Shown here piece by piece: positions 28,753-31,635 of a stretch of DNA of 32,000 bases. The stretch is from Verrucomicrobiota bacterium (GTDB lineage Bacteria; Verrucomicrobiota; Verrucomicrobiia; Chthoniobacterales; SZAS-18). Within the stretch, counting starts at the first letter, position 1. Each line of letters begins with the position of its first letter. A program made the position numbers and the translations under genes. The DNA lies in NCBI GenBank assembly GCA_018240025.1, contig JAFEGM010000074.1, positions 11,811 through 43,810 of the forward strand, given 5' to 3'. The notes beneath the pieces are model-generated. The model was not told where the DNA came from, searched no databases, and saw only the letters and a program-made list of their open reading frames with translations.

Positions 28753-29772
28753 TTAGCGAAACTGCCCGAGAAAACGGACGTCGTTCTCGATCAACAGGCG
28801 AATGTCGGGCAATTCGAGGAGAATCATTGCGAGCCGCTCGAGGCCGAAGCCGAAGGCGTAGCCGGTGTACTTCTCCGCGTCGTAGGCCTGATCTCCCCGG
28901 CTGCCGTTGACCCGCTGGAAAACGGCCGGATCGACCATGCCGCAACCGCAGATCTCCAGCCAACGCTCGCCACCGCGGAGCGCGGGCGACTTCAGATCGA
29001 CCTCGAAACTCGGCTCGGTGAAAGGGAAAAAGTGCGGGCGGAAGCGGACGGCCGTCTTCGCCCCGAACAACTCGCGGAAGAAGAACTCCAGCGTGCCCTT
29101 GAGATCGGCCACCGTCACGCCTTCGTCGACCACCAACCCCTCCATCTGATTGAACTGGGCCAGGTGCGTGGCGTCGACTTCGTCGCGCCGATAGGCCGCG
29201 CCGGGGGAAATGACCCGCACGGGCGGCGGCTGCGTCTCCATCGTCCGGATCTGCACGGTGCTGGTGTGCGTGCGCAGCAGGCGGCCGTCCGGCAAGTAGA
29301 AGGTGTCCTGCTCGTTGCGCGCGGGGTGATCCGGCGGCGTGTTGAGGGCGTCGAAGCAGTGGAATTCGTCGTCGACGTCAGGCCCGTCGGCCAGGGCGAA
29401 GCCCATCCGCCGGAAAATCTGCACCGCCCGATCCTGCAGCTGCGTCAGGGGATGCAGCGCGCCCGCCGGCAGCACCGGCGTGCCGGGCAGGGTCACATCG
29501 ACCCCCGCCAAGGCGCCGGCCTCGGCGCGGGCGGCAAACCGTTGCGCCGCGCTCTCGAAGGCCGCCGTGACGGCCGTGCGGACCTCGTTCAGCTTCTTGC
29601 CGGCCGCGGGACGTTCCTCCTTGGCCAGGGACTTCATGCGTTCGCCCAGCTGGGCGAGGGCGCCCTGACGACCGAGGAAACGCACCCGGGCGGTGTCGAG
29701 TTCGAGCGCGGACTGGACGCCGGCGAGGTCGGTCTCGGCTTGGGCGCGGAGTTGATCGAGTTCAGCGAGCAT
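28753..29772 (-). CDS. pheS: Phenylalanyl-tRNA synthetase alpha subunit
   Basis: This is a 339-aa ORF. It shows HPLTQ, DHPARNEQDTFY, LLRTHTSTVQIR, FRPHFFPFTEPS and YAFGFGLERLAM, all classic PheS motifs. Confidence 0.92.
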   Translation of the reverse strand: MLAELDQLRAQAETDLAGVQSALELDTARVRFLGRQGALAQLGERMKSLAKEERPAAGKKLNEVRTAVTAAFESAAQRFAARAEAGALAGVDVTLPGTPVLPAGALHPLTQLQDRAVQIFRRMGFALADGPDVDDEFHCFDALNTPPDHPARNEQDTFYLPDGRLLRTHTSTVQIRTMETQPPPVRVISPGAAYRRDEVDATHLAQFNQMEGLVVDEGVTVADLKGTLEFFFRELFGAKTAVRFRPHFFPFTEPSFEVDLKSPALRGGERWLEICGCGMVDPAVFQRVNGSRGDQAYDAEKYTGYAFGFGLERLAMILLELPDIRLLIENDVRFLGQFR

Positions 29773-29790
29773 GGCGGGGCAACGGGCAGC

Positions 29791-29829
29791 AAAAAAAACG
29801 GGGCGCTGCGATGTGCTCGCCGCGCCCCG
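29791..29829 (-). terminator. Strong intrinsic terminator or attenuator between rplT and pheS
   Basis: The minus strand reads CGGGGCGC-G-GCGA-GCACA-TCGC-A-GCGCCCCG, an 8+4 bp stem, followed by T8. It begins 23 nt after the rplT stop, and its T-tract ends 18 nt before the pheS ATG at 29772. Confidence 0.65.
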
Positions 29830-29852
29830 GGGAAAATCAGTCGGGAAAAACC

Positions 29853-30239
29853 TCAGGCCGCCTTCAGCGTGGCGCCCTGCTTGTTCTTCACCGCGTCGAG
29901 CGCCGTCTGGAAGAGCGCGCTGAACGTGGCCTCGTCCTCGACCGCGAGGGCGGAGAGCATCTTGCGATCCAGCTCCAGGCCGGTCGCCTTCAGACCTTCC
30001 ATGAAGCGGGAATAGGTCAGACCGTGGGTGCGGCAGGCCGCATTGATGCGCGCGATCCAGAGCATGCGGAAGCTGCGCTTGCGATTCTTGCGGTCGCGGT
30101 ACGCCCAGTAGCGGGCCTTGTAGATGGCGTCCTTCGCGTAGCGGAAGAGCTTGGAGCGACGACCGCGGAAGCCACTGGCTTCGTTGATGATCTTCTTGCG
30201 GCGCTTGCGGCTCGCAACGGCGTTGGTGGCGCGGGGCAT
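29853..30239 (-). CDS. rplT: 50S ribosomal protein L20
   Basis: This is a 128-aa ORF. MPRATNAVASRKRRKKIINEASGFRGRRSKLFRYAKDAIYKARYWAYRDRKNRKRSFRMLWIARINAA is unmistakably L20. Confidence 0.93.
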   Translation of the reverse strand: MPRATNAVASRKRRKKIINEASGFRGRRSKLFRYAKDAIYKARYWAYRDRKNRKRSFRMLWIARINAACRTHGLTYSRFMEGLKATGLELDRKMLSALAVEDEATFSALFQTALDAVKNKQGATLKAA

Positions 30240-30273
30240 GGGTAAAAGCGGGTTGGAGTGAAAAGGGGGCCGA

Positions 30274-30486
30274 TCAGCCGAAAGGCAGGCACTCCTTGAT
30301 CTTCTTGATCTCCGTCTTGTCCACGAGGGCCGGGACGGCGAGCTGACGCTTGCGCTTCGAGCTCTTCTTCTGAAGGATGTGACGGCGCATCGCCTGGGTG
30401 CGCTTCACCTTGTTACCGGAACCGGTAATCTTGAAGCGTTTGGCAACGCCCTTCTTCGTCTTGCGGCGGGCTACGGGTTTCGGCAT
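30274..30486 (-). CDS. rpmI: 50S ribosomal protein L35
   Basis: The likely start is ATG at 30486 (MPKPVARRKTKKGVAKRFKITGSGNKVKRTQAMRRHIL), which is L35-like. The track start at 30498 is a GTG 4 codons upstream. Confidence 0.88.
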   Translation of the reverse strand: MPKPVARRKTKKGVAKRFKITGSGNKVKRTQAMRRHILQKKSSKRKRQLAVPALVDKTEIKKIKECLPFG

Positions 30487-30557
30487 AGGGGCGGGCACGA
30501 AAGCACTTTCTCCGCGATGCTCAACTGAATTCGCAGGGAAAAGCGAGGCGTACAGAG

Positions 30558-30843
30558 GGAAGATCGAAACTCGAAACCCGAAACTCGAAGGAAGTTCGAA
30601 GTTCGAAGCTCGAAGAGCCCGCTCGGGCAGGATCCGGGATTTGAGGTCAGAACGGCGCGCAGCTTATGCGTCTCGCAGTCGTCTGGTCCTTGAACTCGCA
30701 GCTCCGATGGGAATGAGGCTTCAGATTTCTTGCTCTCCAAGAACTGGAGACCGCCGTTGCCTCTGGCTGTAATCTCGAGCCAGATCTTCGAGCTTCGAAC
30801 TTCGAACTTCCTTCGAGTGTCGAGCTTCGAGTTTCGAGCTTCC
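30558..30843. repeat. 286-bp inverted-repeat element: 59-bp arms (30558..30616 and 30785..30843) flanking a 168-bp unique core; MITE/REP-like or a long structured RNA
   Basis: I aligned the arms by hand and found 55/59 complementary positions, including a perfect 33-bp core (30584..30616 versus 30785..30817, CTCGAAGGAAGTTCGAAGTTCGAAGCTCGAAGA). Each arm is itself about 7 tandem heptamers of the form GAAnnTC. The right arm starts 1 nt after the TAA stop (30844..30846) of the upstream gene. Confidence 0.85.
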
Positions 30844-31635
30844 TTACGTTTCGAACTCCCGCTTCAGCCGCGCCACGGCCACAGCCTTCCCGTTGGTCGG
30901 GTCGACATCCACCACGGCCCCGCAGAGCCGGATCGGGCCCTGCCGGGCGACCGGCGTCATGGCCGGCATCGAGGTTAGGAAACGCTGCACGATGGGATCG
31001 ATCTCCGACCCGATGATCGACTGCGCGCCGCCGCACATGCCCGCATCGCAGAGAAATGCGGTCCCGCCGGGGAAAATCTGTTCGTCGGCGGTCTGCACGT
31101 GCGTGTGGGTGCCGACCACCGCCGAGACCCGCCCGTCGAGAAAGCGGCCGAGCGCGACCTTCTCGCTGGTGGCCTCGGCGTGCACGTCGACGAAGATGAC
31201 CGGAGTTTGTGCGCGCAGGCGCTCGACCTCGGCTTCGGCGGCGAGAAACGGATTCTCCAGCGCCAGCTTCATGAAGGTGCGGCCCTGGACGTTCAGCACG
31301 CCGACGGGGCCCTTGGCCGTGTCGAGCACGATCGAGCCGCAGCCGGGGGTGCCCGGAGGATAGTTGATCGGCCGGAGCAGGCGCGGCTCGGTCGGGAGGT
31401 AGTTGATGATTTCGCGCTGGTCCCAGATGTGGTCGCCCGTGGTCACGACGGCCACGCCAGCCCGAAGGAGGTCGATGCTCAGCTTCGGCGTGATACCGCG
31501 CCCGTTGGCGGCGTTCTCGCCGTTGGCGATGACGAAATCGGCCCCGAGTTCCTCGCGGAGGGCCGGCAGGTGATCGATGACCGCGCGTCGGCCGGGTTCG
31601 CCCACGATGTCGCCGAGGAAAAGAATGCGGAGCAC
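30844..31635 (-). CDS. YmdB-like metallophosphoesterase (2',3'-cyclic-nucleotide 2'-phosphodiesterase family)
   Basis: The likely start is GTG at 31635 (VLRILFLGDIVGEPGR), matching the family's MRILFIGDVVG-type N-terminus. It also shows ANGENAANGRGIT, TTGDHIWD, DVHAEATSEK and GTHTHVQTADE. The track ORFs starting at 31890 and 31942 extend across the divergent promoter and into the opposite-strand gene. Confidence 0.8.
   Translation of the reverse strand: MLRILFLGDIVGEPGRRAVIDHLPALREELGADFVIANGENAANGRGITPKLSIDLLRAGVAVVTTGDHIWDQREIINYLPTEPRLLRPINYPPGTPGCGSIVLDTAKGPVGVLNVQGRTFMKLALENPFLAAEAEVERLRAQTPVIFVDVHAEATSEKVALGRFLDGRVSAVVGTHTHVQTADEQIFPGGTAFLCDAGMCGGAQSIIGSEIDPIVQRFLTSMPAMTPVARQGPIRLCGAVVDVDPTNGKAVAVARLKREFET

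Follow-up and report, generated by a model that had tools for sequence, protein, structure and literature searches.

The locus considered here lies in a window of 32,000 nucleotides, which is the whole stretch of DNA that was analysed and corresponds to C93:11811-43810 of the genome referred to below as G000. This genome comprises 6.3 Mb in 121 contigs with a GC content of 67.7%, and its assembly is 92.5% complete. On the minus strand, a YmdB-like metallophosphoesterase gene (30844..31635; Pfam PF13277, E 3.8e-100) is followed by rpmI, the gene for ribosomal protein L35 (30274..30486, minus strand), and downstream of rpmI lie rplT, encoding L20 (29853-30239), and then pheS, encoding PheS (28753-29772); the last three genes were also assigned by Pfam. 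The ATG at 30486 was taken as the rpmI start after alignment with relatives. The list of open reading frames begins the gene at a GTG at 30498, and the alignment with eight relatives favours the ATG, which gives an L35 of 70 residues. A 286-bp inverted-repeat element (30558-30843) is positioned between the YmdB-like gene and rpmI. Between this element and rpmI there is a -35-like box, TTGAGC (30519..30524, minus strand), which was recognised by comparing the regions upstream of rpmI in nine genomes.

The element is composed of two arms and a centre. The left, rpmI-proximal arm (30558..30615) is a canonical 58-nt unit that matches positions 2-59 of an nhmmer arm profile with 63.7 bits. The right, YmdB-proximal arm (30786..30843) is an inverted 58-nt copy, which matches the same profile positions with 64.3 bits. 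The 170-nt centre (30616..30785) is unique: BLAST found no copy elsewhere in the genome, and Rfam gave no match. When 30558-30616 is compared with 30785-30843, 55 of 59 positions are complementary, and the longest perfect run is 34 nt. The left arm pairs with its partner beyond its own end, as far as 30625, and a repeat finder stretches the arms to 68 nt with 90% complementarity (30558-30625 and 30776-30843, with 150 nt between them). The right arm stops at 30843 and directly adjoins the TAA of the YmdB gene (30844-30846, minus strand), and the distance from the left arm to the rpmI ATG is 71 nt. The GC content of this copy is 0.59 in the centre and 0.48-0.51 in the arms, while that of the window is 0.69. 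No target-site duplication is present at the element. The initial annotation, made from the letters of the sequence, had given the complementarity of the arms, their construction from GAAnnTC heptamers, the distances to both neighbouring genes and the lack of a target-site duplication correctly. Its perfect core exists but measures 34 nt instead of 33, and the uniqueness that it assigned to the centre does not extend to the arms, which are a genome-wide repeat.

The minus-strand RNA of the element is predicted to fold with -188 kcal/mol (z = -8.3), a value that none of 100 shuffled sequences equalled. An Rfam scan of 29700-31300 at E<=10 returned a single chance snoRNA match and no L20 leader model. 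A consensus scan of the region for promoters and terminators revealed no canonical example of either in or at the element. A canonical intrinsic (Rho-independent) terminator, which has a short GC-rich stem, a small loop and a U tract, was considered and rejected, as the stem of 58-68 bp and the loop of 150-170 nt do not have this form and the consensus scan was empty. Annotators might take this copy for a small-RNA gene or for the leader of rpmI.

When the element was compared with its own genome by BLAST, it matched through the arms only, in dozens of places. An arm profile was built from 94 arms aligned on the motif TCGAAGGAA, and a search with this profile found arms at 139 non-overlapping places across the 6.3 Mb. 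They form 43 inverted pairs, and 53 are unpaired; these counts are lower bounds because several arms sit at contig ends. Approximately 16 of the unpaired arms are strong and have no partner remnant within 450 nt. The arm is a 58-nt module consisting of a G, four GAARYTC heptamers, GAAG, three more heptamers and a final GAAG. The fourth heptamer is GAAACTC in nearly every case, and variation inside the heptamers of the 94 aligned arms is almost confined to the R and Y positions. The borders of the module are sharp, with column conservation falling from more than 90% to background at both ends, and the outer block of the arm gave 73 matches at up to two mismatches and none with a reversed-pattern control. 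The paired elements are mostly 156-356 bp long (range 85-637 bp), and the centres of the 43 pairs measure 18-523 nt, with a median of 110 nt. There is no asymmetry between left and right arm types in this genome. All reading frames of the arms are free of stop codons, which follows from their composition because T always precedes C or T on either strand. The arms also fragment the assembly, and several contigs end in them.

Additional repeats were seen in and beside the arms. A module of 47-53 nt (CCGAGCGAAGCGAGATGGCCTCTCA...AGAGGC, with a small hairpin) is inserted into arms at about 12 places, where it separates the outer heptamers from the core, and the arms carrying it match the arm profile only from position 25 onwards. 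Its sites include G000:C69:66510-66562, one on C38, and C72:27238, C108:20172, C32:732, C45:6151, C25:10883, C101:28478 and C102:34563. Runs of GAGAGGT heptamers, or of their complement, adjoin the inner end of two arms (G000:C4:25324-25363 and G000:C17:4637-4676), both of them near contig ends. Six contigs (C7:8037, C90:50774, C29, C45, C76 and C107) end in an unassembled multi-copy insertion sequence with the terminus ACAGTCATCCCATRGC; four of the six junctions come after TTTC or GAAAC, and two interrupt TCGA-type arms.

The centres of the elements behave very differently from the arms. An all-against-all BLAST of the centres produced one cross match, which arose from a nested second repeat, and showed no shared interior. 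Their GC content is 0.636, compared with 0.64 in intergenic DNA and 0.46 in the arms, and with a fold z of -0.35, they show no more structure than pieces taken at random from intergenic DNA. Stem covariation, which had been proposed as a check on an RNA function, was not apparent: partner arms are 83.8% identical and non-partner arms 81.8% (24 of 2000 permutations reached the partner value), and transitions between partner arms show no G·U bias in the sense transcript, with 43 against 44. Partner identity is thus barely above that of non-partners and, in the absence of a G·U bias, the arms are seen to be held to a consensus and not to each other. At the 27 pairs with exact ends, flanking direct repeats were no longer than those in shuffled pairings, which indicates that there is no target-site duplication.

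In the orthologous element upstream of rpmI in the relatives G001 and G004, the arms are 97% and 85% identical, the centre 52% and the promoter spacer 85%. A 42-kb metagenome contig (JADMIO011560680.1, L049:7978-11025) is 88% identical to G000:C72:128890-131920; it is also 86% identical to part of C43. No closer relative was seen in any collection, and the contig can help to date individual arms. Two arms lying just after orthologous stop codons are common to C72 and this contig. Where one species has such an arm intact, the other has it decayed, and the sequence beyond is unalignable. Since arms are shared at orthologous sites and are kept while centres decay, the family can be regarded as old and vertically inherited. 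The uniqueness of the centres is likewise explained by their drift, while the arms stay under constraint or conversion.

The position of the arms relative to genes was studied with a codon-usage gene caller made for this analysis, which gave 4,695 genes covering 86% of the genome. The caller is crude; its stop positions are exact and its starts are not. By these calls, the pairs are intergenic, as only 2 of 43 extend more than 20 nt into a called gene. Spacers between convergent genes hold 14 of the 41 pairs that have a called gene on both sides, as compared with a genome-wide share of 16% of intergenic spaces. Of the 38 evaluable elements, 19 have an arm no more than 6 nt from a stop codon, against 6.1 ± 1.9 under uniform placement in the same spacers, an excess whose size depends on the gene caller and on the uniform null and which would shrink under a null of a "safe harbour before terminator" kind. 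The sides of elements that face gene starts are a median of about 57 nt away. Unpaired arms have the same polarity, with the outer end towards the stop. At C62:66122-66366, the element makes up almost the whole spacer of a convergent gene pair, at distances of 9 and -1 nt. Counting stop triplets in relatives that lack gene calls did not discriminate.

Two other repeat families occur in the same genome. The second heptamer-built family consists of CCTTCNN units (e.g., CCTTCCTCCTTCCTCCTTTTCTTCCC) at about 92 places, one of which is beside fabD (G000:C30:26240-26406), and includes eight inverted pairs around unique centres. In about 15 cases, the end of its pyrimidine strand falls at -1 to +1 of a called ATG; in others, it overlaps the stop codons of genes on the opposite strand. 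The third repeat has a unit of 56-57 nt (TTGGCCTGCGGCTTTGGTCGATTCGAGGACGAGGACGACG...; for example, G000:C113:22119-22176) and is found at about 156 places on 41 contigs. Its units are often clustered at intervals of about 60-190 nt (G000:C104:6478-7187 and G000:C101:27994-28462), and a TCGA-arm element contains one inverted pair of them. The lineage seems to be prone to repeats with a 7-nt period.

The distribution of the arms across genomes is narrow. They are present in five of the six genomes of the genus and in one of three genomes of the neighbouring genus, and there are none in 12 other families of the order. G000, G001, G004, G005 and G006 are rich in the repeat, and G002 and G003 are poor in it. 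Among 400 further genomes of the phylum, a single one gave a match, which was a simple GAAACTC run. Public matches comprise four contigs of uncultured Verrucomicrobiota MAGs and four metagenome contigs, and a search of viral contigs and plasmids gave no match in either. The elements of relatives are shorter; their outer four heptamers match those of G000 almost exactly, and their inner block is looser and species-specific. The presence of individual elements varies. At the site of the C69:66316-66588 element, the flanking genes are about 200 nt closer together in G001, G002, G004 and G005, which lack the element; occupied and empty sites were judged here at the level of the locus, with boundaries not resolved to the base, between deeply diverged congeners (~75-87% amino-acid identity in three flanking proteins). 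The loci on C62, C49 and C96 are uninformative because their flanking genes are on different contigs in all congeners, where synteny is scrambled. With 139 arm places and a presence that varies among congeners, the picture is opposite to the single-copy, universally conserved site that the initial annotation had set against a MITE.

The gene order rpmI-rplT-pheS is conserved in the nine genomes compared. The gene upstream of rpmI in every relative is a divergent fabD-like gene, and it is neither infC nor ymdB; the suggestion that the element sits where infC usually lies can be discarded. Family-level relatives have a 70-nt spacer upstream of rpmI without the element. In G002, the spacer is 95 nt and lacks the element, and arms could not be recognised in that of G003. 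An orthologous element is found in G001 and G004 at a distance of about 70 nt from the rpmI ATG, and G005 has a decayed one. All five congeners have ymdB at another location, where no arm follows it, and therefore the order ymdB-element-rpmI is specific to this genome. A comparison of C-termini with the five congeners places the YmdB stop at its native position. The rpmI-proximal arm may descend from the arm of G001 and G004, or it may derive from a second insertion. An origin of the ymdB-rpmI junction from reciprocal recombination between two elements is not supported, as fabD (C30) is flanked by a non-TCGA repeat and no relative has an arm after ymdB. A box (TTGAGC, TTGAGA, TTGTGC or TTGTCA) situated about 38-44 nt upstream of the rpmI ATG is common to all relatives. 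A consensus sigma-70 scan found nothing at this box, and its conservation and position suggest a promoter role. Because the box is downstream of the element, the rpmI leader would be short and would exclude the element, which is probably outside the rpmI transcript.

The explanation that we consider likely is that the 286-bp element is a copy of an old, lineage-restricted, non-coding palindromic repeat that spread in trans without target duplication, that its arms are kept at the level of their sequence, and that it occupies the 3' region of ymdB, upstream of the rpmI promoter. Past spread would have been driven by a trans-acting enzyme of the type that leaves no duplication. Mobility may be inferred solely from presence and absence between deeply diverged species; the searches found no transposase, parent element or recent whole-element duplicate. 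What keeps the arms would be selection on their sequence or gene conversion among the copies, not selection for arm-arm pairing, and copies would persist preferentially directly after stop codons, where they may be tolerated or favoured. At the present locus, the element would be located in the ymdB 3' untranslated region and upstream of the rpmI promoter. A transcript reading through from ymdB would fold it into a stem of 58-68 bp, and this stem could form a 3'-end barrier or an insulator between ymdB and rpmI. Such a barrier is plausible as a consequence of the element and not as a demonstrated purpose.

Other explanations give the arms or the hairpin a function of their own. The transcribed arm pair might be a long hairpin that acts as a bidirectional terminator, a 3'-end stabiliser or an RNase III site, separating ymdB from rpmI-rplT-pheS. 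The long stem-loop RNA of the initial annotation is indeed physically possible for the 286-bp copy, since the stem is very stable (z = -8.3). The arm 0-6 nt after a stop in half of the elements, the enrichment between convergent genes, where an element sometimes takes up nearly the entire spacer, and the outermost GAAAAC...GTTTTC, which could serve as A and U tracts, would all suit this function. However, the near equality of partner and non-partner arms and of the G·U transitions gives no sign of evolution that preserves pairing, and approximately 16 strong arms, several of which also abut stops, have no partner. No terminator-like site was called, and a stem interrupted by a long centre terminates poorly during transcription, which applies here to stems split by 50-250 nt. 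A hairpin function is thus thought unlikely, though it is the alternative to be taken most seriously. Far less can be said for an L20-responsive leader controlling rpmI-rplT translation. The location upstream of rpmI and the strong structure favour it, and nothing else does, whereas Rfam gave no match at E<=10 with the L20 leader models included, the same arms recur at about 140 unrelated places, and the conserved -35-like box is downstream of the element. As relatives have fabD upstream of rpmI with or without the element (it is missing in G002, G003 and the family-level relatives, and the others carry a different centre), the leader can be regarded as ruled out. Another possibility is an invertible switch, in which recombination at the inverted arms flips the centre. 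Bacteroides invertible promoters likewise have inverted arms around different centres at many loci, and this genome has many loci with common inverted arms and different centres. Yet the centres share no promoter or motif and look like neutral DNA, unpaired arms exist, and no recombinase is linked to them, which makes a switch very improbable.

The conservation of the arms to a consensus rather than to the partner would also be expected if each arm were an array of binding sites for a protein that recognises TCGA-centred heptads in DNA or RNA, with the arms marking gene boundaries and the inverted pairing being incidental. The confinement of variation to R and Y of each heptad and the common polarity of unpaired arms towards stop codons are consistent with this, as is the fact that the CCTTCNN family, at its ~92 places, likewise ends at start or stop codons. 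But no candidate protein was identified, and gene conversion among more than 100 copies could hold the consensus without a binding factor, and so a binding array is viewed as improbable, below the hairpin in standing. A broader speculation, and one of similarly low probability, treats the TCGAARY and CCTTCNN repeats as sister families of "heptad boundary elements" that are kept by a heptad-reading factor and have a role in translation termination or re-initiation, or in defining transcript boundaries, instead of being selfish DNA. It is based on the TCGAARY arms after stops, the CCTTCNN arms exactly at starts or stops and the fixed number of 7-nt units in each. If true, such elements would represent a new class of cis-elements, distinct from REPs, MITEs and simple heptamer arrays. 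The placement after stops, echoed by the second heptamer family, links repeats of this kind to a gene-boundary function in a way that can be tested.

The old palindromic repeat preferred here can be compared with several known systems. REP and REPIN elements are mobilised by RAYT transposases and are known from Pseudomonas and Enterobacteria (PMC3116915, PMC3337134). The likeness to them includes a high-copy extragenic unit that occurs singly or as an inverted doublet and forms a hairpin around a less conserved spacer, and the 43 pairs are inverted, extragenic, multi-copy hairpin doublets of this sort. No target duplication, vertical inheritance, long persistence and the frequent location of copies just after stop codons are further common features. 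A REP unit, however, is a GC-rich imperfect palindrome of 20-40 nt with a GTAG/CGTC head (PMC3733652). The unit here is a 58-nt heptamer array beginning with G-GAAAC, the spacer is not fixed (18-523 nt), and the GTAG/CGTC head is absent from the column profile of the 94 arms. The genome contains nine matches to PF01797 (Y1 transposase), none of them next to an arm. The best RAYT-like gene, an IS200/RAYT-like Y1 transposase (G000:C104:38320-38754), has inverted copies of an unrelated REP (GGCCGAAGGCCCGACCTAAGGTAGCCCAGGCC...) on its flanks. Membership in the REPIN/RAYT system was rejected, as the unit is not a REP and the RAYT candidate examined carries a different one. The REP at this gene (GGCCGAAGGCCCGACCTAAGGTAGCCCAGGCCGCAGGCCTGGG) is classical-looking and occurs at 11 places, and around the gene there are an N gap and several different kinds of short tandem repeat.

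Bacterial MITEs of the Correia, ERIC or RUP type (reviews PMC10969869, PMC2229807) are similar in their length of 150-300 bp, their terminal inverted repeats, their non-coding and intergenic nature, the hairpin that forms if they are co-transcribed and a presence that varies between species. The elements described here are small, have no coding capacity and end in inverted 58-nt arms, and at the rpmI and C69:66316 loci, occupied and empty sites are found among congeners. They differ in that their arms are unusually long and internally periodic. A strict MITE was rejected: there is no target-site duplication in 27 pairs and no shared interior by BLAST. As for an autonomous IS with the same ends, a search of this genome, whose assembly is fragmented and has arms at contig ends, gave no inverted arm pair with a separation of 0.7-8 kb, and plasmids and viral contigs gave no match. 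The description of the element as MITE/REP-like is therefore apt in kind, as the family is multi-copy, intergenic and present or absent between species, but it does not extend to a target-site duplication, a shared interior or a link to the RAYT candidate examined, and no parent IS was found. In Drosophila, Foldback (FB) transposons have long inverted arms of short tandem repeats around a variable centre. They are eukaryotic and much larger, and their arms vary in repeat number, whereas the heptads here are fixed at 4 + 3, and no relationship is implied.

Heptamers in intergenic DNA are known from the direct-repeat arrays of TAACTGA in Beggiatoaceae, Cyanobacteria and Bacteroidetes, which have been proposed, though not demonstrated, to bind a regulator (PMC4679880). 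These arrays and the cyanobacterial STRR heptamers share with the present family units of 7 nt, many intergenic sites and positions a few nucleotides from gene boundaries. They are simple direct arrays of variable copy number upstream of start codons; in contrast, the arms here are composite and of fixed length, usually form inverted pairs and lie after stop codons. The repeat family is previously undescribed; it resembles REPs and MITEs and fits neither, and its architecture is new. With it, an uncultured Verrucomicrobiota lineage joins the few bacterial groups known to have large and old populations of palindromic intergenic repeats, here with an architecture that lies outside both mechanistic classes, RAYT-REPIN and IS-derived MITE.
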